Notes under the pieces: model-generated
Database searches by the model: none
Seen by the model: only the letters and a program-made list of their open reading frames with translations
What the model was told of the DNA's origin: nothing
Virus record (IMG/VR): IMGVR_UViG_3300025597_000012
Origin: a virus
Length of the DNA stretch: 64,000 nucleotides
Strand: one strand, 5' to 3'
Shown here: positions 1,980-57,062 of the stretch, in pieces
Position numbering within the stretch: the stretch's first letter is position 1
Layout of the letters: each line of letters begins with the position of its first letter
Translations under genes and position numbers: made by a program

Positions 1980-4900
1980 TAATATTTATTTAATAGTCTA
2001 TAATATTGTAATTGTTCTTCCGGTTGCATCATGTTAACAGCTTGTCTTACAATCGGAATTGCTTTAAAGAGTTTGGCTTTTAATATAGAGTCTCCTTTAT
2101 CAAAGGCTCCTGTTTTTCTTTTATATACTTCTGTAGGATTAGTTACTAATTGAGTAAAGAAATCAGTATATCTTGTAGCTGTAAGAATTACGGCTGAAGG
2201 ATTTTGAAGCACCTGCATAATATCAGTAGCTCCAAAGATACTATACATACCTATATCTTTTCTAAGTCTAAGCATTTGAAGAGTAAGGGTATTTTGTAAC
2301 CAAGATTTATCCTTATCATCTCCTGAAGCATTAGCTAAAGCTATTGTTAAAATACCCATTCCTACAAGTAATGAGAGTTCAAACATAGTTTTATTATAGG
2401 CATACTTTTCATCAGCAGACCAACCTTTTCTATTAAAGAAGTTAGCTGCAGCGTTGAATTTCATTTCTTTAATATCAGAAGCAACCTTACTGAAGAATTT
2501 ACGATAGTATCCCTCCATTTCATCACCTATCTCATAATCAAAGCGTTGTCTTCCGTATCTTGACCTGAAAGCGTTGTACATGAACTTACGGTAAATTAAC
2601 ATAAGTTTACCATAAAAGGTTCTCTGCAGTTGAACTTTATCGAATTTACTATAGTTACCGTTAAGTATTTTATTTACACCATGTAGTCTTTGAGTGAAAA
2701 GTCTTTCATCTTCAGCAGTCCAGATAATATCATCTCTAAGTCTCAAGAAACCTTTTTCATTAATTTTATGAGCATCAAATAGAGATATAGTTTCTCCAGA
2801 CGTAGTTTTAACTTTGGTAGCGTTCATTAAAGAAAGCATACCTACAAGCTGAATCTGGTGTTCTGCTGCGTGGTTAATAATAAAGATAGTATCGGCATTT
2901 GCGTATCTTTGTGTAGCATTACCAACAAACTTTTTACCATATTTATCACGGAACTCACCTTGGATAGCATCGTATTTAATACCTAACTGAGTAATCTTTG
3001 ATTTCTTAAGATTAAAGGCATCCTTCATAAACTCATTAAAGTTACTGAAGTATTGTCCTTGAGCTTTTCTCCAGTCAGCAGGTGTATAATATTTAGCACC
3101 AAGAGATTCTCCAAGTGTCATAATATTACCGATACTTACGTTACCTATACCTGCTGTTACGTTGAAAGCCATGTTATTAAGAGCAGTAAGAAAGGCAAAG
3201 TTTCCACCAAGTTTATTTAAATCTACAGCTCTGCCAAAAATTCTAGCAGTATCTTGTAATTCTTCTTGACCATATACTACATCATCTAACCAGCTAAGTA
3301 GTTGTTTATTAAGACGTTCTGCTGTAGTTTTCTTAGAAGGAAGTTTAAGGAATCTATCAAAAATAGTTTTTCTATCAGATGTAACAGGAATTATTTTTCT
3401 TGCTTCCATCTTAAACTGAGCATTACCTTCAAGAACCATTCTTAAAGTTCTTACATTAGGTTCAACTTCTCTCATCATTTCAACAAGATTAGCTGCACCT
3501 GCAAACTTAAAGATTGTTTCGGGGAGAACTAAGCTTACATTAGAATCATCAATAGATTGTACATAAGGAGTTTTAATTCTCTTGTACATACTACCATCAA
3601 GATTTATGTCATTTTGTGCTGTAGTACTTTCTTCAGCTTTAGGTAAAAAGAAATTCAATACTTTATTACCTACTACTTTTGCTTTATTACCAGCACCTTC
3701 AGCAGTTTTAACATCTTGAATTTGACTGGGTTTGTCAAATACCTGAGGTACTATACCAAATTGAAGTCTTTCTTCTTCTCCATATTTATCATTACCTTCT
3801 TTATAGGTATCATACATTTTTGTAAAGAACTCGTCTTTATTGTAGAGTCTATCAAATTCTGCATTTTTATACTTATCAGCAGGTTTTGAAAGGCTACCAT
3901 TCTGTTCTTCCCAAGCAAAAATTTTATCTACATAATTTTGATATAAAGCTCTTTCTGCTGCTGTAGAATTTTCACTTGGCGCATCAGGCATTTCTCCTAA
4001 TGTTTCTAAGAAGGCAGCTTTATCTTTAGTATAAAGGTCATAGAAGTAAGGTTGGTGCAAAGCCCATTTCTGAGTGTAAGCCCATTTGAATTTACCTTCA
4101 TCATCTTTCTCTTCAGTTTTCTGAAGGATAGTAGCTTTTCTTAAGAAATTTTTCTTGTAGTATTCTACAGTACTTTTAGTTTCATTAGCTAAACCTTTTG
4201 CTTTCAAGAATTTAGCATAATCAATTTTAATTTCTTCACCAAGTTTTGCTTCATATAAATGGTTATCTTCCATTACATCAAATAAGGCTGTTCTTGTAAT
4301 AGCAGAAACAGGGTCATTATTTGAGCCAACAGAACCTAAATGGAACTGTAAGAAGCTTAAATCTTCATCAGCATTATACAGTTTATTTTTAAACTGCTCT
4401 TTTGTAAGTACATAACTAGGGTACTTATCTTTAATTCTTTCATTAACTTCCTCAATGTAAGGGAATAACCATTCAGCAGTAAGGTCTATTGAACGTGCCT
4501 TAATCTTATAGTCAGCTATATTTCTAGCTTCTGCAAGAGTTATTTGCATAGCTTTATATGCTTCAGGGGCAAGGTCTTGTGCTACTCTACCAAATAAACC
4601 ATGTACATCTTCGTACATAGCTAAAAGGTTTCTAACTAAGTCAAGGTCTCTATGAAGTTGTTTTACATCTTTCTGAGTAAGCTTATTTTCTTTATCAGAA
4701 AGCTTACCACTAATTCTCTTGAACTCATCACTAGCATAACGAAGACCATCTATACCTTGATAGATATATTGGTTAATACTTTCAAACTCATCATAGTTTT
4801 TAAGTAAAGACCTAACAGCTATAAGTTCAGAAAGAAGTTCAGGAGAAGGTGTTCTTCTTCTGGCTGTATCATCTAAAACAGCTAGTCTTCTTTTAATTCT

Positions 4901-7900
4901 TTCTATAAGTTTCTGGTCGTCAGTCTTTTCTGTAGCATCTGCTTGGAAAGCTTTAACGGCAGTAATTAAGTCTTTTCTTTCAGTAAAGTCAAAAGGCATA
5001 CCATTACTTGAAGTAAGGTCGGCAAACTCGGCAAGATTCATAGCCGGAAGATATTTTATTTTAGCAACTCCTTGTTCACCTGCTTTTGCACCTTTTACAT
5101 TAGCTTTTAAAGCTCCATAAAAACCACTAAGTACACTTACAAACCAATCAAAGAATTTTCTAGCTAAACTAGCTCCAGATTTATGATATTTATCATAAAG
5201 GAATCTACCAGTTCTGTCAAAATTTCTAGCTCCAAGTTTACCTAAATAGTTAACTAAAGCTTCGTCTTGGATTTCTTCTTTATTTTTACCTTTATATAAA
5301 GGACTCTTTAAAGTTTCAGACATAGCTTCACCAGCTATATCATCGTTCTCAAGTACAAGAGCTTTATACTCCTCCATTAAGCTTGTATATAGAGCATGGT
5401 TATCTACTTTAAGTACAGCCATAAATGGGTGAAGATATTCGTGAAATGGTGTATCTCTTGATACTCTACTTAAGTTAATAACAGCTACACTATTTTCAAA
5501 TTTACCTTTCCAATCTTCATCAACATCTACTACTTGATAAGGTATATTATATTTTTGTTTAAGATGCTCAAGTATAACTTTAAGACCAACATAATCAACT
5601 GTTAAGTTATCTTCATCTTCTGTAGATACAGTAAAAGGTTCATTTTGTTTACCATATTCAGTTTTATGATTTTCTGAATAATCTGTATCATAAGATTTAG
5701 GTATAACTATTTCTTTAAGAACACCTTCATCAAAAGGTTCTTCTGTTTCTTCTTGAATTTCAGGAGCAACTTTAGTAAGTTTATCTGAAGCAACAATTTG
5801 TTCACCATACTTTGTACCATCAGTAATAGTAACAAAAGTAGTTCCTTTTACAGTTCCGAAAGGTGTTTCTTTATCAAGACCTTCATTAACTTCAGTAACG
5901 GTAAGTTCTTTACCATTATACATAACTTTAGAACCTACATCTTCCTTAGTGAATACTTCAGGAATACGTTCTTCCTCAGGTTGAGGTTGTTCTTCAGTCT
6001 GTTGTTCAACTGGTTCAGTTTGTTGAGTTTCAGTTTCTTGTGCAGGAGTTATTTCTTTTTCTTGTGTATTTCCTGCATTTAATTTATCAATGATTGACTG
6101 AATAGCCTCATCTTTATTTAAACCTATTGCATCACCAGCTTCATCATACCAAGCACCATCAAATTCATCAATAGTATTGATAAGAGTACCATTATGTTTT
6201 ATCTCTACAAGACCATCTCCTGTAGTACGAATACTTAATTCTTTACGAGTTATAGCTTTAGTAGGTACTGGAGCAGGTTCTTCGGCTTGTGCTTCTTCAA
6301 CCTTTTTCTCTTCTTCCTGTTCAGTTTTTACCTCTTCTTTAATAACAGTCTCATATTTTTCACCAAGCATAGCAGCATAAATCTTTTTCATGCTGTCATT
6401 AAGGGTTACGTCAATATCAGAACCTACGATACCTTTATAAATATCAGTTAACCATTTCTTAAAATTATCAAAGAGTTTTTGTAATGTAGAAGTAGGAGCT
6501 TCACCATCAGCAAGGTATTTCTCAAAACCTCTAGCAAATTTCTCAGATGTTTCTCTACTCCAATCTTCAGTTCCAGCCCATTCTAATACGTCAGCTCTCT
6601 CAGTATCAGTAAGTTGTCCTTCCCAATAGTGAGCAAGTTCATGTAAAGGAGTTGATACATCAGGATTAGTTAATGAATAAATAATAGCCTGACTATCACC
6701 TAAAAGTCTTATAGCACCTTTTGGGCCTTGATTAAACTGTACATTAGTCCAATTAGCAATTTTAGAAGTATCGTTTCTTTTTAAATCATTATCTGAAAAT
6801 TCAGGACGACCTGAATAAGTAGGTTTAAGTAGTCGTGTAAATCTGTGTTCTGAATTTTTTAATTTTTTAATTTGTTCTTTTATTTCACTTAATTTTGCCT
6901 CTATATTATTTTTAAATTCAAGATATTCAGTTATAGAATCAAAATCGTCTTCAGTTACACTATCTAAATTATTTTTAACTAGGTTATATAGTTGTATTGC
7001 CCCTTTATATTTATCTTCTCTAGTACGAGTATTTGTACCACCTTCTATATTTAAATGATTTTTAAGTTGATTATATATAGAATTAGATAATCTATCTTCT
7101 ATTACTTTTTGTTCATCTGATGTAATATTAGATATTAATTTAGAAATATCTTGAACTTTTCTAAAAGTTTCAGTCTGGTCTACTTTTAATAATTTTTTAT
7201 ATAAACTTGCTTCAGCTAAAATATAATGTACATTATCATCTCTTACAAAAGGAGAATTTATAATTTTATCTTCATAAGAATTATTTTCAATATCTTTATC
7301 TGTAACATTAAATTCACGAAGTATGCTTCTTAATCGAGTTACAAAAGAACCTATTTTTATATTTGTTAAAGTAGCTTCTTTATCTAACCCTCCATGACCG
7401 TTATTAAATCTATTCCAAAGTCCTGAAAGTCCTACTTTTATAGAATCATATTGTTGTGTTATTCCATTAAGTGCTTCAATCTCAGCGTCTGTTAAGTTAA
7501 AGATTTGTTTAAATTGAGATAAAGTTTCTTTATCAATATAGTCTACAATACGACCAAAATTTGATATAAGTTGATTTTTATATTCCTCTTCTGTAACAAA
7601 TTCTGTTCCATCACGAAAAACTTTAAGACCTTTGGAAATATCAGTAATAAAGTTTGTAGGATTTTTTATTTTAGAGATATTTTCTAAAATATTAGCTACA
7701 GGTATTCTTAATTTAGACTCAACTGATTGATTTTGAAATAAAAGATTACCTTCATTTATGAAAGGATTAACAGTTCCGTGAGTTGCCTCATATACGAATT
7801 TAAGGGTATTACCATATCCATTATCAGCAAGCCACTTGTTAATTTTCTTAGCAAGTTCGGGGGTAGCTTTACCATTCTTAGTTTGGAAGGCAAGGTTACC

Positions 7901-44032: not shown

Positions 44033-46072
44033 TTAAAATGGTGAAGTATTAGTTCTAAATGTAGAAGCTCTACTTAATCTAAACGGAGAGCGTATAGGTT
44101 TAAACTCTTTAGTAGGTTGAGGAGTATCTGAATGATTTACTAAAGGACTTGTTTTTTGTAGGTGAGAATCATATGCTAAAGCGTGTCTAAATGCCACAAT
44201 TCTATCCACATTTACTGTACTACTATAATTAAGCATTTCTACAAGAAGCATTTTATCTGGGATTCTTGTTACTCCAAGTTTTTTGATTACTCTTCCATCC
44301 TCTAGAACAGTAGTCAATTCTTCTTTACAGTATTGGTAAAGTAGAGCCATACAGTGATTTATAACTCCTACTGTAGGAGGTAAACCCTTTGGTTTGTTTC
44401 TAATAGATGTATTTGGTGAAATCTGTACTAGCAAGTTATAGCCATCAGCAAGGTAGTGAGCCTTATTTTTGGCATCCATATACTCTATGAAGTTAGTACC
44501 TACGTTTTCTATCATCAGAGTTGCGTTGTATAATTCCAAGAGCATCTCTACTATATTATGCCACTCTTTCATTTGTGTTGGACGAGCTGCATAACTTGCT
44601 ACAATAGAGTTTTGGTATGTTCCGTTTACAGGGTCATAAAGTCTTTTATATATACAAACTGTACCTAATGAAGGACTATTGTTTGATGTACTTTGGTTAT
44701 ATGGGTCACCTCCCGCTATATATAAAAGAGGTGTAATATTTTCAGGTTCAGCTACAGGAGGCTCAAACATCATAATAGGAGCATCTTTAATAGTAGCTCC
44801 TGTTACAGGGAAATCTGTAATTTCTTTTAAAGATGTATTAAATGTATATTTTACTTTTCCTAATTGGTCTCTATAAAGTTCTACAGGAGTACCGCTTTTT
44901 TCTAAACTATTCAAATAAGCAAGATGCTCTCTAATAGCTTCAATAGGAAATTCATTTACTTCATCACTTAAGAAACAATCTTCTGGTTCCTTCGGAAAAT
45001 ACATTCTAGCTTTAAGAGCAGCTTTTGGGTCTTTAGCATTTTGAGCATCTGCTATTTCTCTATCTGTTACAGAATCTGCTAATGCTTTATCTGATTCATA
45101 AAAAGGAAGATTTAATAATTCAGAATCTTCTGGAAGTAATATATTATTTTTTCTTACAAAATTTCCAAAAGTTGTTTTAACTTTTCCTTCCATTCTATAA
45201 CTACCCGGAACAAAAAGACCATATTTTTTGGATTTACCCGGCCATTCTACACCTAAAAAACCATATGCTTCAGGGTCTGTAAATAGTTTTTCTGCATCTG
45301 AATTAGGGATGAAAGTACCACCTGTACCAGTTAGAATAGGTACACAACGCCATCCAAAGGGAGATGTAAAACCGGGTTTAGCAGCTTCAAAAGCTTCAAT
45401 AATTTTTTCAGCTTTACCAATCTCATCTATTACAAGAGTTTTAGGAGTAGTACCTGCAATAGCTTCCGTTTTTCTACCTTCTTCAAGGTTACGAATAAGT
45501 ATTTTAGACCATTCTACTTTCTCACCAGATTTCTTTTTAAGACCAAGAGAAACCTCTTTTCTCCAGTCATCTAATAGTCTATCAAATTTAAAATAAGGAT
45601 TTAATGATGCTAATCCTCTATCTGTAGAAGCAGCAATAATTTTAATATCAGATTCTGTAGTACTAGAAATGATATTTTGAGAACCTTCATAAATAGTAGC
45701 ACCTCTTCCAATCCAAGAGGCTTCAAATTCAGTCTTTGCAAAACGGCGTGTACCAAAAATTAATAGTCCTTTATTTTTTGCATCTTCCGCTTTCTTAATA
45801 TATTCTGCTATAAGCCACTCATTATCACGAAAATCAGGGTTTTTAAATACACGAATAATATCTTGTGGTCTATTTGGGTCTTCTTGGTCAAGATAAATTT
45901 TCCAGTGATTCAAATGCCAATATAACCAACCATGTATGTAAATACCATTAATTGTTACACCATATTTTATCTTTTTTAACTCTTCCTGAAAAAAAGGATG
46001 CCATTCCTCAGATTTCTCATCTGGAATGGCTTTCATATTAATAAATAATTCAGGACTTGTACTTAGGCTCAT
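44033..46072 (-). CDS. terL: Terminase large subunit
   Basis: Walker A-like LIFGTRRFAKTE and Walker B-like TLVIDEIG. Its size and its position next to the portal fit. Confidence 0.7.
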   Translation of the reverse strand: MSLSTSPELFINMKAIPDEKSEEWHPFFQEELKKIKYGVTINGIYIHGWLYWHLNHWKIYLDQEDPNRPQDIIRVFKNPDFRDNEWLIAEYIKKAEDAKNKGLLIFGTRRFAKTEFEASWIGRGATIYEGSQNIISSTTESDIKIIAASTDRGLASLNPYFKFDRLLDDWRKEVSLGLKKKSGEKVEWSKILIRNLEEGRKTEAIAGTTPKTLVIDEIGKAEKIIEAFEAAKPGFTSPFGWRCVPILTGTGGTFIPNSDAEKLFTDPEAYGFLGVEWPGKSKKYGLFVPGSYRMEGKVKTTFGNFVRKNNILLPEDSELLNLPFYESDKALADSVTDREIADAQNAKDPKAALKARMYFPKEPEDCFLSDEVNEFPIEAIREHLAYLNSLEKSGTPVELYRDQLGKVKYTFNTSLKEITDFPVTGATIKDAPIMMFEPPVAEPENITPLLYIAGGDPYNQSTSNNSPSLGTVCIYKRLYDPVNGTYQNSIVASYAARPTQMKEWHNIVEMLLELYNATLMIENVGTNFIEYMDAKNKAHYLADGYNLLVQISPNTSIRNKPKGLPPTVGVINHCMALLYQYCKEELTTVLEDGRVIKKLGVTRIPDKMLLVEMLNYSSTVNVDRIVAFRHALAYDSHLQKTSPLVNHSDTPQPTKEFKPIRSPFRLSRASTFRTNTSPF

Positions 46073-48358: not shown

Positions 48359-48408
48359 TAATTTAACCCTCCACCTTAGTCCTGTACCAGCGGGATTGGG
48401 GGAATACG

Positions 48409-48480
48409 CACGGGCTGTGGGCATCGAACCCATCTCCATGCAAGGTTTTGGAGACCTGCTGCTTCCTAAAGCTAGCCCGG
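48409..48480 (-). tRNA. tRNA-Trp(CCA), non-canonical
   Basis: Anticodon loop CTCCAAA and T-arm ATGGG-TTCGATG-CCCAC. Irregular features are a tiny D-loop (GCTT-TAGG-AAGC), a C1.U72 mismatch and an 8-nt variable region. The TGG codon in the upstream leader supports the call. Confidence 0.5.
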
Positions 48481-48485
48481 ATAAG

Positions 48486-48558
48486 TACACTCTAAAAGAT
48501 TCGAACTTTTATTTCTTGGTTCGTAGCCAAGTGTCCTCATCCATTGGACGAAGAGTGC
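48486..48558 (-). tRNA. tRNA-Arg(ACG)
   Basis: Cloverleaf with anticodon loop CTACGAA and T-arm AAAAG-TTCGAAT-CTTTT. Confidence 0.8.
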
Positions 48559-48563
48559 AAAAG

Positions 48564-48636
48564 TGTGAATGACCAGACTCGAACTGGTACTTAGTAGCTC
48601 CACAAACTACCGCTCTACCATTAAGCTACATCCACC
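48564..48636 (-). tRNA. tRNA-His(GUG) with encoded G-1
   Basis: Anticodon loop TTGTGGA, an extra 5' G before acceptor GTGGATG, and T-arm ACCAG-TTCGAGT-CTGGT. Confidence 0.8.
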
Positions 48637-48643
48637 ATATGAG

Positions 48644-48714
48644 ATGCCTCTAAAGGACTCGAACCTGTAACTCTTGACCCAAAATCAAGCGTGTTGCCAT
48701 TACACTAAGAGGCA
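48644..48714 (-). tRNA. tRNA-Gln(UUG)
   Basis: Acceptor TGCCTCT/AGAGGCA (U1:A72) and anticodon loop TTTTGGG. Confidence 0.8.
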
Positions 48715-48719
48715 AAAAG

Positions 48720-48791
48720 CGTGGAAGGTGGATTCCGAGACCACAACACCTTGCTCTTCAGGCAAGTGCTCTACCTTTGAGCTACATCCAC
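48720..48791 (-). tRNA. tRNA-Phe(GAA), unusual T-loop
   Basis: Anticodon loop CTGAAGA. The T-loop is 9 nt (TCTCGGAAT) and there is one acceptor mismatch. Confidence 0.6.
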
Positions 48792-48798
48792 ATAATTG

Positions 48799-48872
48799 AG
48801 CCTGAGAAGGGAATCGAACCCTCAACCGCTAGTTTACAAAACTAGTGCTCTACCGATTGAGCCACTGCAGGC
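48799..48872 (-). tRNA. tRNA-Thr(UGU), bulged acceptor stem
   Basis: Anticodon loop TTTGTAA. The acceptor GCCTG(C)AG/CTCAGGC needs a 1-nt bulge. Confidence 0.6.
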
Positions 48873-48876
48873 ATAG

Positions 48877-48948
48877 TCTAGTTGACAGGGTTCGAACCTG
48901 CCTAGTCTTGCTCCCAAAGCAAGTGCCTAACCAATCGGCCACAACTAG
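48877..48948 (-). tRNA. tRNA-Pro(UGG)
   Basis: Perfect acceptor CTAGTTG/CAACTAG and anticodon loop TTTGGGA. Confidence 0.85.
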
Positions 48949-48952
48949 AAAT

Positions 48953-48977
48953 AAAAAACCCCGCTTTATAGGCGGGG
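48953..48977 (-). terminator. Intrinsic terminator (attenuator) immediately 5' of tRNA array 1
   Basis: Minus strand reads CCCCGC-CTATAAA-GCGGGG followed by TTTTTT. It ends 4 nt before tRNA-Pro. Confidence 0.7.
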
Positions 48978-49003
48978 CTTTAAGTATAATAATTGAGTTT
49001 CAA

Positions 49004-49078
49004 TTAGTTACACGTAGTGCATCCGCCACCAGATATTGTGGGCGTAAACCAAAAGCGTGTATGTTGAAACTGTTTCAT
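49004..49078 (-). CDS. Leader peptide L1 (24 aa) MKQFQHTRFWFTPTISGGGCTTCN
   Basis: Hand-translated, and below the ORF-track size cutoff. Codons 3-14 (Q F Q H T R F W F T P T) use only the 7 amino acids whose tRNAs follow, and they use all 7. It lies between the promoter and the terminator. Confidence 0.6.
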   Translation of the reverse strand: MKQFQHTRFWFTPTISGGGCTTCN

Positions 49079-49139
49079 ATTTAAAAAAGACCAATTCTAA
49101 GCGCGCTGTTCTATAGGAAGCGGAACTGGTATATTGATG

Positions 49140-49171
49140 CAAACTTACGAAGAATTTTTCAATCCTCCAAA
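49140..49171 (-). promoter_or_regulatory. Bacteroidota-type promoter of leader L1 / tRNA array 1
   Basis: Minus strand reads TTTG-N20-TAAGTTTG. Confidence 0.65.
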
Positions 49172-49204: not shown

Positions 49205-49741
49205 TTAACTTCCTAACTCATTGTCTAACAGACGTAAAGCTATTTTATCTGTACCAAAGGCAGCTAATCTATCCATAAGATTTTGAGTCTTTTCATGCTC
49301 TTCTATTTGTTCTTGTAAATATTTCATACCTAAAGTATAGAGCATAAAATCTGCTTCTTTTAAAGCATTAGCTGTCAATTCTTTACATTGCTTAGTTATA
49401 TCAATTTCATGTTGATAAGACTGTTTAATTATATCCGGTAAACCTGCAAATGTTTGTTTAGGTGAGTCTAGTTTTGGAGTTTCAGGTTGAACACCCATAG
49501 CTAAGAGATACTCTCTAGACCATTCTGCGTGTTTTAGCTCTTCCTCTGAATATTTTCTCCAAAGCTTTGCTGAACCTAGATAACCATTATTATTTAACCA
49601 CAGACTCATGGCTAAATATAGACGAGAAGAAAGCTCCTCTTGTTGGATTCTATTATTTAAAAATTGAACACATTTATTAGATAATAGTTCATTTTTACCT
49701 GTAAGGGAAATAGAATCTGTAGTTTTAAAATTAAGTTCCAT
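49205..49741 (-). CDS. Ferritin-like iron-storage protein
   Basis: IQQEELSSRLYLAMSLW...GSAKLWRKYSEEELKHAEW...SYQHEIDIT...LQEQIEEHE reproduces the spacing of ferroxidase-centre E/H residues in bacterial Ftn (compared from memory with E. coli FtnA). Confidence 0.7.
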   Translation of the reverse strand: MELNFKTTDSISLTGKNELLSNKCVQFLNNRIQQEELSSRLYLAMSLWLNNNGYLGSAKLWRKYSEEELKHAEWSREYLLAMGVQPETPKLDSPKQTFAGLPDIIKQSYQHEIDITKQCKELTANALKEADFMLYTLGMKYLQEQIEEHEKTQNLMDRLAAFGTDKIALRLLDNELGS

Positions 49742-49786: not shown

Positions 49787-49790
49787 TTTG

Positions 49791-49875
49791 TGAGAGTGGC
49801 TGGAGTCGAACCAGCACCCTTGCGGGACTACAGTTTTACAGACTGCTCCACCTAACCGATAGGTAGCTCACTCTC
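49791..49875 (-). tRNA. tRNA-Tyr(GUA), class II
   Basis: Anticodon loop CTGTAAA, variable arm CCC-GCAA-GGG and perfect acceptor GAGAGTG/CACTCTC. Confidence 0.8.
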
Positions 49876-49881
49876 AAATAG

Positions 49882-49967
49882 CGGAAACGAAAGGACTCGA
49901 ACCTTCAACCCAAATTAACGAGTAACGGTTTAGCAAACCGCTGCAGTACCATTATGCTTACGCTTCC
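49882..49967 (-). tRNA. tRNA-Ser(GCU), class II
   Basis: Anticodon loop TTGCTAA, long variable arm and T-arm GAAGG-TTCGAGT-CCTTT. Confidence 0.7.
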
Positions 49968-49972
49968 AATAG

Positions 49973-50056
49973 CGGTAGAGACAGGAATCGAACCTGTACG
50001 GCTATTACACCTTCATGGTTTTCAAGACCAATAAGCCCTCTCATTTGCGCTCTACC
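49973..50056 (-). tRNA. tRNA-Ser(UGA), class II
   Basis: Acceptor GGTAGAG/CTCTACC, anticodon loop CTTGAAA and long variable arm. The D-stem is weak. Confidence 0.6.
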
Positions 50057-50062
50057 AATATG

Positions 50063-50148
50063 TACTCCTGACTGGACTCGAACCAGCACGTCCATTTCTG
50101 GACAAGGGATTTTAAGTCCCTCGTGTCTACCAATTCCACCACAGGAGC
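50063..50148 (-). tRNA. tRNA-Leu(UAA), class II
   Basis: D-arm GTGGAATTGGTAGACAC, anticodon loop CTTAAAA and variable arm GTCC-AGAAAT-GGAC. Confidence 0.8.
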
Positions 50149-50153
50149 ATATG

Positions 50154-50237
50154 TAGCCTCGGAGAGACTCGAACTCTCACGTCCTTACGGACACTAGCTC
50201 CTAAGGCTAGCGCGTCTACCAATTCCGCCACAAGGCC
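50154..50237 (-). tRNA. tRNA-Leu(UAG), class II
   Basis: D-arm GCGGAATTGGTAGACGC, anticodon loop CTTAGGA and variable arm GTCC-GTAA-GGAC. Confidence 0.8.
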
Positions 50238-50240
50238 AAT

Positions 50241-50268
50241 AAAAAACCCCGACTATTGCTCGCCGGGG
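50241..50268 (-). terminator. Intrinsic terminator (attenuator) immediately 5' of tRNA array 2
   Basis: Minus strand reads CCCCGGC-GAGCAATA-GTCGGGG followed by TTTTTT. It ends 3 nt before tRNA-Leu. Confidence 0.7.
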
Positions 50269-50300
50269 TTTGAGGTTAAAGACCGTAGTCTAAAACAAGT

Positions 50301-50369
50301 TTACATAGTATTCCCAGCTCGATTTTTACTCGATAAACTGAGGGAATAATATGTGTTGTTTGTCTTCAT
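50301..50369 (-). CDS. Leader peptide L2 (22 aa) MKTNNTYYSLSLSSKNRAGNTM
   Basis: Hand-translated. Codons 7-14 are TAT TAT TCC CTC AGT TTA TCG AGT (Y Y S L S L S S). They use only Tyr/Ser/Leu and cover both Ser boxes and both Leu boxes, matching the downstream Leu, Leu, Ser, Ser, Tyr tRNAs. Confidence 0.6.
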   Translation of the reverse strand: MKTNNTYYSLSLSSKNRAGNTM

Positions 50370-50386
50370 TGCGTTTGAAAGGAATA

Positions 50387-50418
50387 CAAATATACGAAAA
50401 ATATTTGAAACTACCAAA
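50387..50418 (-). promoter_or_regulatory. Bacteroidota-type promoter of leader L2 / tRNA array 2
   Basis: Minus strand reads TTTG-N20-TATATTTG. Confidence 0.65.
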
Positions 50419-52784: not shown

Positions 52785-53243
52785 CTAGTTTCGGCAAATA
52801 TGGTCTGCTGCTTTTGAAGCTATCATCTCGTCTGGTTTTACTAAAACATTATATCCTAGTGATTTAACCCAACCGGTAATAGCTGGAACAAGATTTGTTG
52901 ATTTTGTTATTTTTGCATTATTATAATCGAACTCAAGGGCTTCAAATTGGACTGGAACTTCTGCATTTATAGTTTGAGCTGTATCTATTGTTATTTCAGC
53001 TTCCTTCCATAAACGGCTAAAAGTATCCCTTATCCTAGGGATTCTTTGCTTTCTATATACAAAGTGTGCTCCCCTAAGTCCATATCTGAACACAACCGCC
53101 GTAGCGTAAACTGTATTCGACCCGTAATTCTGTGAGTCAGTAGCTATGTAAATCTTTAGGTTTGGATTCTGCTGTATTTGTTCTACAACGTGTTCCACTA
53201 TGTTTACTAACTTTCCTTCCTCTGTCCGAAAGTATTTGTCCAT
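52785..53243 (-). CDS. YkuK/DUF458-like RNase-H-fold protein
   Basis: The pattern LKIYIATDSQNYGSNTVYATAVVFRYGLRGAHFVYRKQRIPRIRDTFSRLWKEAEITI matches, from memory, the ..GTDSQ....tiv.H..g.Ga.f.Y.k signature of this family. Confidence 0.5.
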   Translation of the reverse strand: MDKYFRTEEGKLVNIVEHVVEQIQQNPNLKIYIATDSQNYGSNTVYATAVVFRYGLRGAHFVYRKQRIPRIRDTFSRLWKEAEITIDTAQTINAEVPVQFEALEFDYNNAKITKSTNLVPAITGWVKSLGYNVLVKPDEMIASKAADHICRN

Positions 53244-53255
53244 TGGTTTTATTTG

Positions 53256-53331
53256 TGGAATCTATGGGCATCGAACCCATCTGGTATTCTGCTTGCAAGG
53301 CAGACGACCACTCCAAGCAGTCCCAGACCCC
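53256..53331 (-). tRNA. tRNA-Ala(UGC)
   Basis: Acceptor GGGGTCT/AGATTCC includes the G3.U70 pair. Anticodon loop CTTGCAA and T-arm ATGGG-TTCGATG-CCCAT. Confidence 0.7.
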
Positions 53332-53456
53332 AAATGCGGGGGACTACGGCCCCCTAAAGATGTCTTATTAGGTTTCATCTCTGTCCCGGATTACGCTAGC
53401 GAGCTACCGGGGAAACCACGCTACATACTTTCGTAGAGGTTATGCGGGTTACACTG
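53332..53456 (-). other. Structured 125-nt spacer inside the tRNA array (not foldable as a tRNA)
   Basis: Nested stems GGTTTC/GAAACC and CCCGG/CCGGG, hairpin GGGGG-CCGTAGT-CCCCC and hairpin TAC-GAAA-GTA. No T-loop. Confidence 0.35.
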
Positions 53457-53529
53457 TGCTCACGCTAAGACTCGAACTTAGACTCTCTCGCGTATCAGGC
53501 GAGAGCTTTAACCATTAAGCTACATGAGC
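53457..53529 (-). tRNA. tRNA-Ile(GAU)
   Basis: Anticodon loop CTGATAC and T-arm CTAAG-TTCGAGT-CTTAG. Confidence 0.8.
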
Positions 53530-53581
53530 TGGAGAGGGACAGGTTATTTATACCTTCAAAGGACTCCCTCAGACCTCTTCG

Positions 53582-53654
53582 TACTCTCAAAGGGATTCGA
53601 ACCCTAAATTGCCTGTGTATAAGACAGGAGTTTTCACCGTTAAACTATGAGAGC
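53582..53654 (-). tRNA. tRNA-Ile(UAU)
   Basis: Anticodon loop CTTATAC and T-arm TAGGG-TTCGAAT-CCCTT. AUA codons are used three times in leader L3. Confidence 0.7.
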
Positions 53655-53801
53655 AAGTAAAGAGAGTGGGATTAGATTTCCGGGGATTGACCCAACCTGT
53701 GTCCTAATCTTATTTATCCTTGTACGGAGGCACACTCTCTTTGAATGGTCGGGCGGATTGCTTCTTTCAGCCTCAGACATTAATTACAATGTTGCCCGAT
53801 G
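53655..53801 (-). other. Structured 147-nt spacer inside the tRNA array (tRNA-like stems but no canonical cloverleaf)
   Basis: Acceptor-like pairs TCGGGC/GCCCGA and GAGAGTG/CACTCTC. Internal hairpins ACATT-GTAATTA-AATGT and GATTAG...CTAATC. No TTCGA T-loop. Confidence 0.3.
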
Positions 53802-53874
53802 CGGTCTATCACGGATTCGAACCGAGACTACCGCATAGACAGTGCGGCGTGTTCAACCATTACACTAATAGACC
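53802..53874 (-). tRNA. tRNA-Asp(GUC)
   Basis: Perfect acceptor GGTCTAT/ATAGACC and anticodon loop CTGTCTA. Confidence 0.8.
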
Positions 53875-54504
53875 ATAAACTTTATCCATGTTTGTTTTTC
53901 CGTTGCCATGAATAATCAACGGCTGAGTACCAGTTTTTTTATTAATCAGGATTCCATGTCTGTACTCAAAGTCATCTTCTGATTCAAAAGCTACAGATTG
54001 AAATAAATCACAGTTGGTATCCAACTTCATGTTATATTTATCTCTGTGCTTCAGATAAATTTCTGCTAAGTTAACTTGGTCATTATCACTATGTTTTATT
54101 GGATAATCCTCAAACATCTTGATAAATAAATCTACATTAACAAAGCATGCACCACCATTCAGATATTTCCAATCACTTTTTACTTTAGGATATTTTTCTG
54201 CCCAATCTGAATAAGGCCAGCATCCTTTTTCTGCGTTAAATATAATAGAATCAATATCATCTATTCTATCTATTGCTTGTTGCATTGTACCCAAAACTAT
54301 GATGTCATAAGTGTCTAGGATAAACAAGTGAGTACAATCTGTTTGCTTTGCATAGTTATAAGCGTTAACCATTTTACTACCATAAGCTTTATAGGTATCA
54401 GTCAGAATATCATAATTCCAATCAAACCTATCAAGTGAATCTTTAAACTGTTTAAACCCTTCGTGGTTTAAGTTGGTTGCTGTTCCTATTACGTTTACTT
54501 TCAT
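53860..54504 (-). CDS. GT-A glycosyltransferase resembling the collagen (LH3/PLOD-type) glycosyltransferase domain
   Basis: LFILDTYDIIV (DxD-like), FNAEKGCWPY, KYLNGGACFVNV and PLIIHGNGKT. From memory, these parallel VDSYDVI / FSAE.FCWP / FLNSGGFIG / VHGNGPTK of LH3. The 3' end overlaps tRNA-Asp by 15 nt. Confidence 0.5.
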   Translation of the reverse strand: MKVNVIGTATNLNHEGFKQFKDSLDRFDWNYDILTDTYKAYGSKMVNAYNYAKQTDCTHLFILDTYDIIVLGTMQQAIDRIDDIDSIIFNAEKGCWPYSDWAEKYPKVKSDWKYLNGGACFVNVDLFIKMFEDYPIKHSDNDQVNLAEIYLKHRDKYNMKLDTNCDLFQSVAFESEDDFEYRHGILINKKTGTQPLIIHGNGKTNMDKVYGLLV

Positions 54505-55289
54505 TTGAATGGATTATAATAAATAGATATTGTATTATTCTTATAACCCTGAACGGTTTCGTGATAGGTTTTCCATTGTTCAGAAGCATGGTTTTCTTTC
54601 CATTTCTGGTATGGTGTTCCTCCTGTATCTATGTGTTCTATCTCTATATGAGGTAAGAATACACTTTTAAACCCTGATAGTCTTGCTCTTATAGACATAA
54701 GGACATCATCAAATCCGTATAAACTAGGTTGGTATAAATAACCTATTTTATCAAGTAAAGCTGCTGAGTGCATAACACAAGTACCCATCACATGATTTAC
54801 TTGTTCTACTACTACCCATTTTTCACCGGGCTGGTGTTGAAGCATTAGTAATTCTGACTTATAAAAATCAGTTCTATTTGGTGATTCCCAACAATCTTTT
54901 CTTTTCAAGCCCACCTGTCCAATAGTATTGTCACGGCGAAAAACTTCTTCCATCTGTTCTATCCAACCTGATTGATGTATTACTACATCATCATCAATTT
55001 TAACACAATTCTCTCCGGGTTTTCTTTCTTTCCATGCTAAATTAATAGCTTCAGCAGTTCCTAGATTTTTATCATTCCAGATAACTTTATCAATTACAGA
55101 AAAAATTCCATTTGATTCAGAAAAATCTTCTATTATTTCTTTTGTTCTAGTAGTATAGGAATTTACAGAAAGTATTAATCTGTGTGAATCCCAGTCAACT
55201 GTTTTTTCTAAAGAATCTAATGTTTTATAAAGATATGTATCTTTATCATTATCTTCAGTACAATAAACAGCCATTGCTATTAAAGCCAT
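54501..55289 (-). CDS. Family-2-like glycosyltransferase (start trimmed to MALIAMAVYC)
   Basis: GT2-like N-terminal beta-strand, NLGTAEAINLAW and a KIDDDVVI DxD motif. The track start at 55331 lies inside tRNA-Glu. Confidence 0.55.
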   Translation of the reverse strand: MALIAMAVYCTEDNDKDTYLYKTLDSLEKTVDWDSHRLILSVNSYTTRTKEIIEDFSESNGIFSVIDKVIWNDKNLGTAEAINLAWKERKPGENCVKIDDDVVIHQSGWIEQMEEVFRRDNTIGQVGLKRKDCWESPNRTDFYKSELLMLQHQPGEKWVVVEQVNHVMGTCVMHSAALLDKIGYLYQPSLYGFDDVLMSIRARLSGFKSVFLPHIEIEHIDTGGTPYQKWKENHASEQWKTYHETVQGYKNNTISIYYNPFK

Positions 55290-55304
55290 TGGTTTTATTT
55301 TTAG

Positions 55305-55379
55305 TATTCTGGAAGGGACTCGAACCCTCACTGACCACAGTGAAAGTGTGGTGACTTATTCCAATTTGTCAACCAGAAC
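55305..55379 (-). tRNA. tRNA-Glu(UUC)
   Basis: Anticodon loop CTTTCAC and T-arm GAGGG-TTCGAGT-CCCTT. Confidence 0.8.
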
Positions 55380-55380
55380 A

Positions 55381-55452
55381 TTTGCAGTTTAGTCGGCCTC
55401 TACTATACCTAGGCCGCAGAGAGTATAGACTCGTATTCCATCTACTGCAAAA
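55381..55452 (-). other. 72-nt three-way-junction element between tRNA-Gly and tRNA-Glu
   Basis: Closing stem TTTGCAG(tt)TAG/CTACTGCAAA and hairpins CGGCC-13nt-GGCCG and GAGT-ATAG-ACTC. Its size is tRNA-like, but there is no T-loop and no anticodon arm. Confidence 0.3.
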
Positions 55453-55460
55453 AGGAATTG

Positions 55461-55531
55461 AGCGAGTAGTGGGAGTCAAACCCACGCCTTAACCTTGGAA
55501 GGGTCATATGCTATCGTAACACTTCACTCGC
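55461..55531 (-). tRNA. tRNA-Gly(UCC)
   Basis: Anticodon loop CTTCCAA and T-arm GTGGG-TTTGACT-CCCAC. The 5' 21 nt overlap the HNH ORF's 3' end. Confidence 0.7.
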
Positions 55532-55942
55532 TAATGCTTCTTTATAATGTAAATCTCTATGACAATTAGCACATAAAACTTTACATTTATTTATTTCTTC
55601 TTGTAATAGTTTTTTAGAACATTTTGTTACAAGTTGTGATACTTCTGAATCTTTTTCATTTGGATTTTTATGATGAAAATCTAAAACCCAATATCTACTA
55701 TCTCCACATGATTCACAAGATAAAGTACTTTTGTATTCAGAAAACCATTTTCTAAAGTCTTGTTTATACTTTACTGCTTTTTGAATATACTTTTCTTTAT
55801 TTTTTTCGTAATGCTTTTTTCTATATTCTTTTTGACAAGCTTTACAATTACTTTGATAAAGTAAATTTTTTCTATCTTTTCTTGTAGCAAACTCCGTTAA
55901 AGGAAGTTCTTTTTTACAAATTGTACATTTTTTAATTTTCAT
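55511..55942 (-). CDS. HNH endonuclease (start trimmed to MKIKKCT)
   Basis: CxxC pairs plus DFHHKNP...CANCHRDLH. The track start at 55978 lies inside the promoter. Confidence 0.65.
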   Translation of the reverse strand: MKIKKCTICKKELPLTEFATRKDRKNLLYQSNCKACQKEYRKKHYEKNKEKYIQKAVKYKQDFRKWFSEYKSTLSCESCGDSRYWVLDFHHKNPNEKDSEVSQLVTKCSKKLLQEEINKCKVLCANCHRDLHYKEALASEVLR

Positions 55943-55947
55943 ATATG

Positions 55948-55979
55948 TAAATATACGAAAAATAATTGATACTTCCAAA
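55948..55979 (-). promoter_or_regulatory. Bacteroidota-type promoter (imperfect -7 box TATATTTA)
   Basis: Minus strand reads TTTG-N20-TATATTTA, 5 nt before ATG 55942. Confidence 0.45.
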
Positions 55980-56001
55980 TTTTATTTTATTTGGAAGGAT
56001 G

Positions 56002-56073
56002 TTGCGTAGGCTGGATTCGAACCAGCGACCTAATGGTTATGAGCCATCCGAGCTACCTCTGCTCTACCACGCA
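56002..56073 (-). tRNA. tRNA-Met(CAU) (elongator or Ile2-type; not initiator-like)
   Basis: Anticodon loop CTCATAA and T-arm GCTGG-TTCGAAT-CCAGC. There is no GGG/CCC anticodon stem. Confidence 0.75.
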
Positions 56074-56183
56074 ATTTATCCCCGGACTAGTGCGCCTTCC
56101 TCCGGGGGTGTTATTGCTTATCTTCTTCGTCAATAACTAAACCCTTTTGGGTCGGCCAACGGATACTATCCGCAGGGGGGGGG
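56074..56183 (-). other. Hairpin-dense 110-nt spacer upstream of tRNA-Met with a C9 (plus-strand G9) homopolymer
   Basis: Stems CGGA/TCCG, ACCC/GGGT, TTATTG/CAATAA and CCCCGGA/TCCGGGG. The G9 run is at about 56175-56183. Confidence 0.3.
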
Positions 56184-56396
56184 CTATCTTAATATCTTTA
56201 AACCGCTGGTAGCAGTCCAAAGAACATAATTGTTTTTCTTTACTTCACCCATTACTATTTTCTTTTCATAATTAGTAACTCGTGAAGTAGGAAGGGTAAC
56301 CAACCAGTGAATGAATTTTTCTCGTTCACCTTTGTATTTTTTAATACTGGCTATCCTACGGTATTCCTTACCGTCTTTTATGACTGTATCATTCAT
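56184..56396 (-). CDS. Hypothetical protein (70 aa)
   Basis: ORF starting 2 nt after the tRNA-Asn 3' end. Confidence 0.35.
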   Translation of the reverse strand: MNDTVIKDGKEYRRIASIKKYKGEREKFIHWLVTLPTSRVTNYEKKIVMGEVKKNNYVLWTATSGLKILR

Positions 56397-56397
56397 G

Positions 56398-56472
56398 CGG
56401 GACAGGATGGACTCGAACCAACGACCTTAGAGTTAACAGCTCTCTGCTCTCGACCAACTGAGCTACAGTCCC
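56398..56472 (-). tRNA. tRNA-Asn(GUU)
   Basis: Anticodon loop CTGTTAA. One mismatch each in the acceptor and T stems. Confidence 0.65.
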
Positions 56473-56513
56473 CTTTTGTATTTTTAACTCCACGCAGAAT
56501 ACTAACTGACCTG

Positions 56514-56587
56514 AAGCCCTGAAAGGAGTCGAACCTTCATCTAATAGTTTAGAAAACTATGACATTCATCCATTATGCTACAGGGCC
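56514..56587 (-). tRNA. tRNA-Arg(UCU)
   Basis: Anticodon loop TTTCTAA and T-arm GAAGG-TTCGACT-CCTTT. Confidence 0.8.
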
Positions 56588-56590
56588 ATG

Positions 56591-56665
56591 TACATCTGGA
56601 ATGAGTCGAACATTCGGTCTCCGTCTTGTAAGGGCGGTGCTTTCAACCAACTAAGCTACAGATGC
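56591..56665 (-). tRNA. tRNA-Val(UAC)
   Basis: Anticodon loop CTTACAA and T-arm GAATG-TTCGACT-CATTC. One C.A mismatch in the anticodon stem. Confidence 0.7.
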
Positions 56666-56720
56666 AAATATAATACTTTATTTAAAGCTTACCAAATAAA
56701 GTATGTTAAAGTTTTGTTAG

Positions 56721-56791
56721 AGGACAAGATAGGAATCGAACCTACGCTGGAGGTGTTGCAGACCTCTGCCTTACCGCTTGGCTACTTGTCC
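56721..56791 (-). tRNA. tRNA-Cys(GCA)
   Basis: Perfect acceptor GGACAAG/CTTGTCC and anticodon loop CTGCAAC. Confidence 0.8.
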
Positions 56792-56794
56792 ATG

Positions 56795-56868
56795 TGCTAC
56801 CGAAGGGACTCGAACCCATAACCTCCTGATTAAAAGTCAGAAGCTCTACACTATTGAGCTACGATAGC
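56795..56868 (-). tRNA. tRNA-Lys(UUU)
   Basis: Anticodon loop CTTTTAA and D-arm GCTC-AATAGTGTA-GAGC. Confidence 0.75.
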
Positions 56869-56872
56869 AAAT

Positions 56873-56897
56873 AAAAAACCCTCCTTTAAGGGGAGGG
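56873..56897 (-). terminator. Intrinsic terminator (attenuator) immediately 5' of tRNA-Lys
   Basis: Minus strand reads CCCTCC-CCTTAAA-GGAGGG followed by TTTTTT. It ends 4 nt before tRNA-Lys. Confidence 0.7.
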
Positions 56898-56920
56898 CTT
56901 CAGTAATATTCGTGGTTAAA

Positions 56921-57013
56921 TTAAACCAGTTCTATATCAGACATAGCTCTCCTGATGATGGTATCTCTACCCACCTCTTTACAAATCATATTTATGGCTA
57001 TGTTCTTTCTCAT
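56921..57013 (-). CDS. Leader peptide L3 (30 aa) MRKNIAINMICKEVGRDTIIRRAMSDIELV
   Basis: Hand-translated. The first 17 residues use exactly the 11 amino acids (K C V R N M G E D I A) of the 12 tRNAs between here and the next leader. All Arg codons are AGA/AGG, and Ile is encoded by ATA three times plus ATT/ATC. Confidence 0.55.
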   Translation of the reverse strand: MRKNIAINMICKEVGRDTIIRRAMSDIELV

Positions 57014-57030: not shown

Positions 57031-57062
57031 CAAACTTACGACAAATATTTGGATTTTCCAAA
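57031..57062 (-). promoter_or_regulatory. Bacteroidota-type promoter of leader L3
   Basis: Minus strand reads TTTG-N20-TAAGTTTG. Confidence 0.65.

Follow-up and report, generated by a model that had tools for sequence, protein, structure and literature searches.

Why would a phage place a strong intrinsic terminator between a promoter and its own tRNA genes? The question is raised by the IMG/VR virus record IMGVR_UViG_3300025597_000012, of which a stretch of 64,000 nucleotides (hereafter the window) was analysed. The window carries three units on its minus strand, each made up of a promoter, a short open reading frame (ORF), an intrinsic terminator and an array of tRNA genes, and in each of them the leader ORF contains a run of codons that are decoded by the tRNAs of its own array. 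The terminator of unit 1 (50241-50418) ranks among the strongest terminator-like sites within 47.5-58 kb. A promoter followed by the strongest terminators of the region, ahead of the genes that these would block, implies that termination is conditional. We propose that the units are ribosome-mediated (leader-peptide) transcription attenuators that precede phage tRNA arrays. The evidence is computational throughout and comes from sequence comparison and RNA folding; on this evidence we put the probability of the proposal at roughly 80%.

Unit 1 begins with a Bacteroidetes-type promoter (50387-50418, minus strand), in which TTTG at 50418-50415 is separated by a 20-nt spacer from TATATTTG at 50394-50387. 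The leader ORF (50301-50369) encodes MKTNNTYYSLSLSSKNRAGNTM followed by a stop codon. Its codons 7-14 (50328-50351), TAT TAT TCC CTC AGT TTA TCG AGT, specify YYSLSLSS and sample Tyr, both Leu boxes and both Ser boxes. The terminator (50241-50268; -15.7 kcal/mol) is formed by CCCCGGC (50268-50262), a loop, GTCGGGG (50253-50247) and six T residues (50246-50241), and tRNA-Leu(UAG) begins at 50237, 3 nt past this T-run. An initial annotation, made from the sequence alone, had listed the promoter, the 22-codon ORF, codons 7-14, the terminator and the start of the tRNAs 3 nt farther on, and all of these statements are correct. It had also assigned five genes to array 1 (49790-50237), namely Leu(UAG), Leu(UAA), Ser(UGA), Ser(GCU) and Tyr(GUA). 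With default settings ARAGORN finds four of these, including Leu(UAA), Ser(GCU) and Tyr(GUA); the fifth, Ser(UGA), is found with relaxed settings and occupies the equivalent position in the arrays of relatives. This tRNA-Ser(UGA) (49978-50061, minus strand) is atypical, in that it is missed by default ARAGORN, falls below the Rfam tRNA threshold and scores 35.6 bits with the tRNA-Sec model. The Ser tRNAs of several relatives are likewise detected only under relaxed settings. When random ORFs of the same length were drawn with the codon usage of the phage, a run of at least eight own-array codons, as in unit 1, was obtained with P = 5e-5, and coverage of all tRNA species of the array (5/5) with P = 0.037.

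The same simulation was applied to the other two units. Unit 2 has a promoter at 49140-49171 (minus strand; TTTG, spacer, TAAGTTTG) and a leader ORF at 49004-49078, MKQFQHTRFWFTPTISGGGCTTCN, whose codons 3-14 (49072-49037) make up the run QFQHTRFWFTPT. This run precedes a terminator (48953-48978; GCCCCGC and GCGGGG(T) plus six T residues) and array 2 (48408-48948), which holds Pro, Thr, Phe, Gln, His, Arg(ACG) and Trp and is closed by a second terminator at 48358-48323. The run length of 12 has P < 2.5e-5 and the coverage of 7/7 has P = 6.5e-4. In unit 3 the promoter (57031-57062, minus strand; TTTG, spacer, TAAGTTTG) is followed by the leader ORF MRKNIAINMICKEVGRDTIIRRAMSDIELV (56921-57013), by a terminator (56873-56898; GCCCTCC and GGAGGG(T) plus six T residues) and by array 3 (53255-56868), in which Lys, Cys, Val, Arg(UCU), Asn, Met, Gly, Glu, Asp, Ile(UAU), Ile(GAU) and Ala are interspersed with ORFs and internal promoters. 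Here codons 2-17 (57010-56963) form the run RKNIAINMICKEVGRD; the run length of 16 (P = 1.3e-3) is accompanied by 12/12 coverage (P = 0.013), and 26 of 29 leader codons belong to the unit's own array. Together the three arrays comprise 24 tRNAs, which between them serve all 20 amino acids and are divided up among the three leaders. The division extends to isoacceptors: in leader 2 the run encodes Arg by CGC and array 2 has Arg(ACG), whereas leader 3 uses AGA and AGG and array 3 has Arg(UCU). A promoter is situated between the upstream gene and each of the window leaders, and the promoter motif TTTG-N17-22-TAnnTTTG occurs 14 times in the window versus 4.2 times expected, a number that no shuffled sequence attained.

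Leader codons and tRNA groupings in relatives

If leader codons report on the tRNAs behind them, phages that group their tRNAs differently should have different leaders. Relatives were found through the large terminase. A 679-amino-acid protein encoded at 44033-46072 is a crAss-like large terminase, the nearest isolates by this protein being Leptolyngbya phage Lbo-JY46 (49% identity) and Cellulophaga phages phi4:1 and phi17:2 (31%). Alignment of terminase relatives retrieved 71 IMG/VR loci, of which 13 have tRNA arrays upstream of the terminase gene. A leader was defined as a short ATG-initiated ORF with its stop codon 40-90 nt ahead of the first tRNA of an array, and this rule recovered leaders, each then followed by a terminator, in all of the 13 loci except L040 and L057. 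The resulting catalogue contains 31 units on 14 crAss-like phage contigs, including the isolates phi4:1 and Lbo-JY46. Relaxed ARAGORN settings recovered tRNAs for Trp, Gly and Ser(UGA) that the default had missed, and false calls that overlapped leaders or lay outside arrays were removed by hand. The start of the first leader of L074 was set to the ATG that it shares with L079. Two short ORFs, at 5645 in L074 and at 3522 in L056, were dropped; they have no convincing codon run and no counterpart in the closest relative. A blastn search of the locus against 50,697 phage records gave only tRNA-to-tRNA matches, and it follows that no close relative is deposited among those records. Relatives of the ferritin-like gene that lies between arrays 1 and 2 (L001-L012) have no tRNAs.

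The initial annotation had proposed a comparison of leader codons with downstream tRNA identity as a test of its interpretation, and the outcome supports it: across the catalogue the leaders follow the groupings of the tRNAs, and relatives with other groupings carry correspondingly different leaders. Arrays of Leu, Ser and Tyr tRNAs are preceded by leaders such as LSYSSLYYLS, YYSLSLLSSL and LLSYYSSSLLL. Where tRNA-Cys is part of the Pro array (L074, L079 and L075), the run of that leader acquires C (FRHTWFTFCPQP) and the leader of the Lys array is then without it (IVDNGIMRGAEK). When the Pro array includes Asp and Asn (L024 and L056), the leaders gain N and D (NNWHNTFNNFTPDQQD and NNQPSWNHQNTDD). 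In L014 and L043, arrays of Pro, Gln, His, Arg, Leu, (Ser) and Tyr stand behind the leaders HSYRPQQLLQ and LSLHSSRPYQQLSLL, and arrays of Ala, Gly, Asp, Asn, Trp, Thr, Arg, Phe and Cys, to which L043 adds more, behind RNNWFNNAAAFTTTDCG and MMMNNWFNIIDTAFATRNCGKVG.

Lbo-JY46 has three units of the window type. Phage phi4:1 also has three units, with a different partition again: QRLHLQELEQP (MKIQRLHLQELEQP...) precedes Pro, Glu, Gln, His, Leu, Leu and Arg; ...TKTGITVIDKTKGARAY..., in unit 2, precedes Ala, Lys, Ile, Gly, Met, Asp, Thr, Val, Arg and Met; and NYCTYNNSNWSFSY (MKTNYCTYNNSNWSFSY...) precedes Tyr, Ser, Ser, Asn, Trp and Phe. The ORF of phi4:1 unit 2 has no ATG and is annotated as the hypothetical protein gp075 from a TTG that lies in the promoter; its start is likely a GTG. 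As a candidate for the third leader of this phage gp076 was rejected, the true one being located upstream of tRNA-Tyr.

These correspondences were evaluated as a whole. In a matrix of leaders against arrays for the eight phages with at least two units, the diagonal dominates everywhere, and among 62,208 permutations the true assignment of leaders to arrays ranks first without a tie, whether it is scored by summed run length or by summed coverage. The correspondence again reaches the level of the isoacceptor. Arg codons within runs are CGN where the array has Arg(ACG) and AGA where it has Arg(UCU). Among the first 20 codons of the leaders there are 22 Arg codons for which the unit's own array has the matching Arg tRNA, all of them within the runs; the 11 mismatched ones are situated in the region of the leader that contains region 2 (see below) or in leaders whose array has no Arg tRNA. 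In L024, where the array includes both Arg tRNAs, AGA and CGC each appear once in the leader. The sampling of both Leu and both Ser boxes, which had been noted for unit 1 in the initial annotation, holds in all seven leaders of the Leu/Ser/Tyr type. Finally, homologous leaders keep their codon content while the order of the codons is shuffled. This is expected of a regulatory leader and not of a functional peptide.

Terminator arms, region 2 and a predicted switch

How might the rate of leader translation be communicated to the terminator? The geometry of the 31 units is well conserved. The leader ORFs have 20-35 codons and their stop codons lie at a constant 52-71 nt from the first tRNA. In nearly every unit there is an ATG, an open frame and a stop codon, phi4:1 unit 2, with a GTG or TTG start only, being the exception. 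The run ends at codon 14-19, and 1-4 codons later, within the last codons of the ORF, there begins a segment (region 2) that is predicted to pair with the 5' arm of the terminator. The stop codon is 22-33 nt before the terminator and the U-tract ends 1-7 nt before the first tRNA. The terminator, a GC-rich hairpin with a U-tract, appears in the full-length minimum free energy (MFE) fold of nearly all units.

In unit 1, region 2 (GCTGGGAATA, 50309-50318) is contained within leader codons 18-21. The initial annotation had pointed to two mutually exclusive pairings of this segment. The first, between the core of region 1, TATTCCC (50342-50348), and GGGAATA (50315-50309), is borne out, as it is part of the MFE fold when the ribosome is absent. 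The fold of the whole leader (-41.9 kcal/mol, z = -4.9, with 0/200 shuffled sequences as stable) contains this pairing together with the terminator and a small hairpin, AGAC-UACG-GUCU (50280-50291), between the stop codon and the terminator. The second, the antiterminator, in which GCTGGG (50318-50313) would pair with CCCGGC (50267-50262) of the terminator 5' arm, emerges in folds from which region 1 and the 3' terminator arm are omitted; taken alone it is not significant. A counterpart of the UACG-loop hairpin, AUCC-UACG-GGAU, is found in the same place in L020, where two of the pairs have undergone compensatory changes. The hairpin may serve as a pause site or as a spacer.

A segment corresponding to region 2 was found in nearly all units (in unit 2 it is CTGGTGGCG, 49032-49024) and it covaries with the terminator arm. 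Since the leaders have diverged too far for the reliable alignment that a formal covariation analysis demands, this was judged from duplex energies. Native duplexes of region 2 with the terminator arm have a mean of -13.3 kcal/mol versus -8.4 for non-native combinations (P about 5e-5 by permutation, the lowest value attainable with 20,000 permutations; relative to shuffled sequences the mean z is -3.1). The compensatory changes can be read directly from individual pairs: GCUGGG with CCCGGC in the window, GCUGGA with UCCAGC in L020, AGCUGGG with CCCAGCU in L079, and ACAGGCUGGGU with GCCCAGUCUGU in L074.

We then modelled the fold of a transcript that ends before the 3' terminator arm, with the footprint of a ribosome masked around each codon in the A site. 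In unit 1 the 5' arm is sequestered (6/7 nt) with the A site at codons 4-13, and is free from codon 14 onward and without a ribosome. In unit 2 it is sequestered with the A site at codons 2-14 and free thereafter, and most units switch where the run ends. In silico, a stalled ribosome permits a mutually exclusive antiterminator on the terminator 5' arm and completion of the leader prevents it. The region 1:2 pairing, which would act as an anti-antiterminator, is predicted for units 1 and 2, with the terminator arm paired at 0.22 and 0.14, respectively, without a ribosome. The model agrees with what the initial annotation had supposed, that a ribosome stalled in the run would free region 2 to sequester the terminator arm and that fast translation would let the terminator form. 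The attenuation reading as such gains further from the two additional units of the window, with their matching runs, and from the covariation of region 2 with the terminator arm, which is strong across the family.

These observations suggest the following mechanism. A host-type promoter would start a transcript whose first element is the ORF of 20-35 codons. The first part of this ORF would be a codon "barcode", read by the downstream tRNAs, usually by every species and with separate isoacceptor boxes, and its last codons would hold region 2, complementary to the 5' arm of the intrinsic terminator. If charged tRNAs were scarce, slow decoding of the barcode would stall the ribosome upstream of region 2, which would then pair with the emerging 5' arm; the terminator would not form and RNA polymerase would read into the array. 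If decoding were fast, the ribosome would run onto region 2, the terminator would form and transcription would stop. Each array would in this way be subject to negative feedback, the signal being the supply of just those tRNAs that it encodes. What we infer is that the leaders are translated, that translation is coupled to RNA polymerase, and in which direction and how strongly read-through would respond.

Attenuation weighed against other explanations

As judged from sequence, the units possess several features of an attenuator: a short promoter-proximal ORF, an enrichment in codons whose decoding would report on the product and a terminator before the regulated genes. Several observations nevertheless count against this interpretation and must be set beside those above. 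The antiterminator of unit 1 is a long-range helix of 6 bp with one G-U pair, and its z of -1.2 is the non-significant value referred to above. The anti-antiterminator is not predicted for unit 3 and for about half of the relatives, in which the antiterminator forms without a ribosome. Many tRNA species are represented by a single codon in their leader, and a single slow codon may be too little to hold up the ribosome; many units are homologous and are therefore not independent observations. Inside array 3 there are internal promoters of the Bacteroidetes type, which would bypass the attenuator of unit 3. One (56665-56696, minus strand) precedes tRNA-Val and another (about 55950-55985, minus strand) precedes a Cys-rich HNH-like ORF (55978-55511) inserted between tRNA-Met and tRNA-Gly. 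The tRNAs downstream of these promoters would escape the unit 3 attenuator. In two phages the leader and the present array disagree. The leader of L019 does not match the array that now follows it; a blastn comparison has the 5' part of tRNA-Pro fused to the 3' end of tRNA-Phe, with the intervening tRNAs gone and Val and Gly next, and the mismatch is explained by a deletion (or an assembly join) between tRNA genes. In Lbo-JY46, array 1 is without the Tyr and Ser(GCU) tRNAs, and its leader retains Tyr and AGY codons. Last, PhiCrAss001 (Bacteroides phage crAss001, MH675552, L086) has syntenic arrays at 1500-5900 without leader ORF and terminator units, which means that an attenuator is not required for the expression of phage tRNAs.

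Among the competing explanations the one that fares best, although we regard it as unlikely, accepts that the leaders are translated and sense decoding speed and gives them another output, such as effects of Rho or of polarity, processing of the precursor or stability of the tRNA transcript, or reverses the direction of the response so that stalling causes termination. In its favour are the weakness of the unit 1 antiterminator, the formation of the antiterminator without a ribosome in about half of the units in the fold model, and the Glu units of L014, L043 and L079, in which a Glu-rich ORF runs into tRNA-Glu without a terminator, so that translation may act on tRNA transcripts in another way. 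However, the complementarity between region 2 and the terminator arm, which covaries across units, would have no role in any of these schemes. A reversed logic of the pyrBI type is further made unlikely by the position of the stop codon, 22-33 nt before the terminator, which is too distant for a ribosome to block the hairpin directly.

A direct sensing of tRNA by RNA without translation, in the manner of a T-box, seems very improbable. In such a scheme the codons of the run would serve as specifier triplets, pairing with anticodons in the array's tRNAs and thereby altering terminator formation. The triplets do match the anticodons down to the isoacceptor, and the output, a terminator and antiterminator pair, is that of T-boxes. 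Against this, an ATG-initiated frame of 20-35 codons, closed by a stop codon at a constant distance from the first tRNA, is present in nearly every unit; the triplets are contiguous and in frame, with no display in loops; region 2 is part of the ORF and would be masked by a ribosome translating it; and there are no T-box motifs and, in the window or its relatives, no match to the Rfam T-box model even at E-values up to 1. That nothing is regulated here, the terminators being ordinary termination or processing signals and the short ORFs chance occurrences or small protein genes, draws some encouragement from the frequency of short ORFs in AT-rich DNA and from the existing annotation of phi4:1 gp075 as a hypothetical protein over one leader, but it is already disfavoured, to the point of being hardly credible, by the run and coverage statistics, the permutation test (1 of 62,208), the agreement of every in-run Arg codon with the isoacceptor of its array, the promoter between the upstream gene and each leader, and the conservation of codon content without that of peptide order.

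If the attenuation reading is preferred, it is useful to ask how the units compare with known attenuators. Their working principle would be that of the leader-peptide attenuators of trp, his, leu and thr. Like the trp attenuator (trpL, Escherichia coli type; RF00513), they have a promoter-near short leader ORF with regulatory codons and, in the fold model, the alternative 1:2, 2:3 (antiterminator) and 3:4 (intrinsic terminator) pairings, with stalling predicted to result in read-through. They differ from it in that region 2 is inside the ORF, that 5-13 tRNA species rather than one would be sensed, and that the controlled genes encode tRNAs instead of enzymes of amino-acid biosynthesis. There is also no sequence homology. 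No Rfam leader family (Trp, Phe, Leu, His or Thr) was found at the gathering threshold in the window or in 12 relatives, the best score of unit 1 being 17.5 with Phe_leader versus a threshold of 55. A sub-threshold match of unit 2 to RF00513 (Trp_leader; 33.9 bits versus a gathering threshold of 41) was rejected as homology, as it arises from an out-of-frame UGGUGGCG and a generic terminator.

In logic the nearest systems are the multivalent attenuators of thr (Thr, Ile), ilvGMEDA (Ile, Leu, Val) and ilvBN (Val, Leu). Their leaders mix codons for several amino acids, and a shortage of any of these relieves termination. The phage leaders share with them a single peptide that mixes the codons of several amino acids. 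However, the thr and ilv leaders have several codons each for 2-3 amino acids, whereas the phage leaders have often 1-2 codons each for up to 11 and distinguish isoacceptor boxes, and the genes regulated would be those of the tRNAs themselves. In the type of gene regulated, that is, genes of the translation apparatus, the nearest are pheST, with its pheM leader, and the T-boxes of synthetase genes, in which premature termination responds to the charging or supply of a specific tRNA. The pheM leader differs in controlling a synthetase and sensing one amino acid, and T-boxes in binding uncharged tRNA directly, without translation. To our knowledge, neither pheM-type attenuation nor T-boxes control tRNA genes.

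PhiCrAss001 and other Crassvirales resemble the window in having tRNA arrays upstream of the large terminase, together with genes for ferritin/Dps-like proteins and HNH endonucleases; in PhiCrAss001, as in the window, the ferritin/Dps-like gene stands among the tRNAs. In PhiCrAss001 and in the tRNA region of a Lak megaphage (LR756502, L087), where leader ORF or terminator units were likewise not found, promoters lead straight into the tRNAs. On the sequences compared, the putative attenuator layer is specific to the clade that unites the phage of the window with Lbo-JY46, phi4:1 and metagenomic relatives of these phages.

The regulation of tRNA genes in bacteria and phages is generally attributed to the promoter and to processing. 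What would be new here, as far as the sequences indicate, is the use of the classical logic of attenuation with a new class of regulated genes and with a multi-tRNA "barcode" as the sensor. If the proposal is correct, these would be the first tRNA genes under leader-peptide attenuation, and leader codons that list the downstream tRNAs would represent a new logic for tRNA genes, in which decoding speed feeds back on tRNA synthesis. The author of the initial annotation knew of no described example, and we found no report of leader-peptide attenuation of tRNA genes, phage or cellular, in the open-access full text of PMC and bioRxiv, the coverage of which is incomplete, so that this is not proof of absence. 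Such control would explain how large phages dose a complete private set of tRNAs. It also bears on why phages carry tRNAs at all, for codon adaptation or for the replacement of depleted host tRNAs. More tentatively, the supply of phage tRNA may be driven by demand, each array being inducible when the ribosome slows on its own codons; the barcode might then serve in counter-defence, as a programmable sensor that lets the phage detect and repair the loss of specific host tRNAs. A loss of this kind could follow, for example, cleavage by a host anticodon nuclease or phage-driven turnover of host tRNA. The units would be natural multi-input translational sensors of 5-13 tRNA species and as such could be reused in synthetic biology. 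Because they are present in a cultured pair, Cellulophaga baltica and its phage phi4:1 (NC_021788), the proposal is directly testable.

Other features of the units and their surroundings

A few additional observations concern individual units. The 5' untranslated region of unit 2 (49079-49139, minus strand) is unusually long, 61 nt, and includes a hairpin (-10.3 kcal/mol, z -1.7) followed by CUUUUUU just ahead of the ATG of the leader. In L019 the stretch at 6230-6660 contains the leader MNTFLRPSLSLYSQHLYAGQGNSV, which would suit an array of Pro, Gln, His, Arg, Leu, Ser and Tyr. At 5391-5780 in Lbo-JY46 (L084, PP438436.1), the tRNAs left in array 1 are Leu, Leu and a Ser(UGA)-like one that lacks annotation. 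The Bacteroidetes-type promoters and crAss-like relatives of this phage make its recorded cyanobacterial host doubtful.

The Glu-rich short ORFs referred to above are located at 5533-5601 in L014 (MKVDSHIQEQEIEGEELNALIV), at 2584-2664 in L043 (MKTNTLIEDKTEAEEIYAPEAKQVEA) and at 5725-5781 in L079 (MVTRLKEGEELCSHRLIG). A promoter stands directly before the one in L014. None is then followed by a terminator and each enters the 5' end of tRNA-Glu. They may represent a different translation-coupled control of one tRNA or a coincidence of purine-rich motifs.

Within array 3 of the window, three spacers between tRNAs (53655-53800, 53332-53455 and 56074-56183, minus strand) are GC-rich, free of ORFs and 110-146 nt long; with z values of -1.1 to -2.5 they show moderate structure, and none corresponds to an Rfam family. 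The genes interleaved with the arrays (49205-49741, 52785-53243 and 53860-55292, minus strand) encode a ferritin-like protein (PF00210), an RNaseH-like protein (PF04308) and two glycosyltransferases (PF25342 and PF00535).

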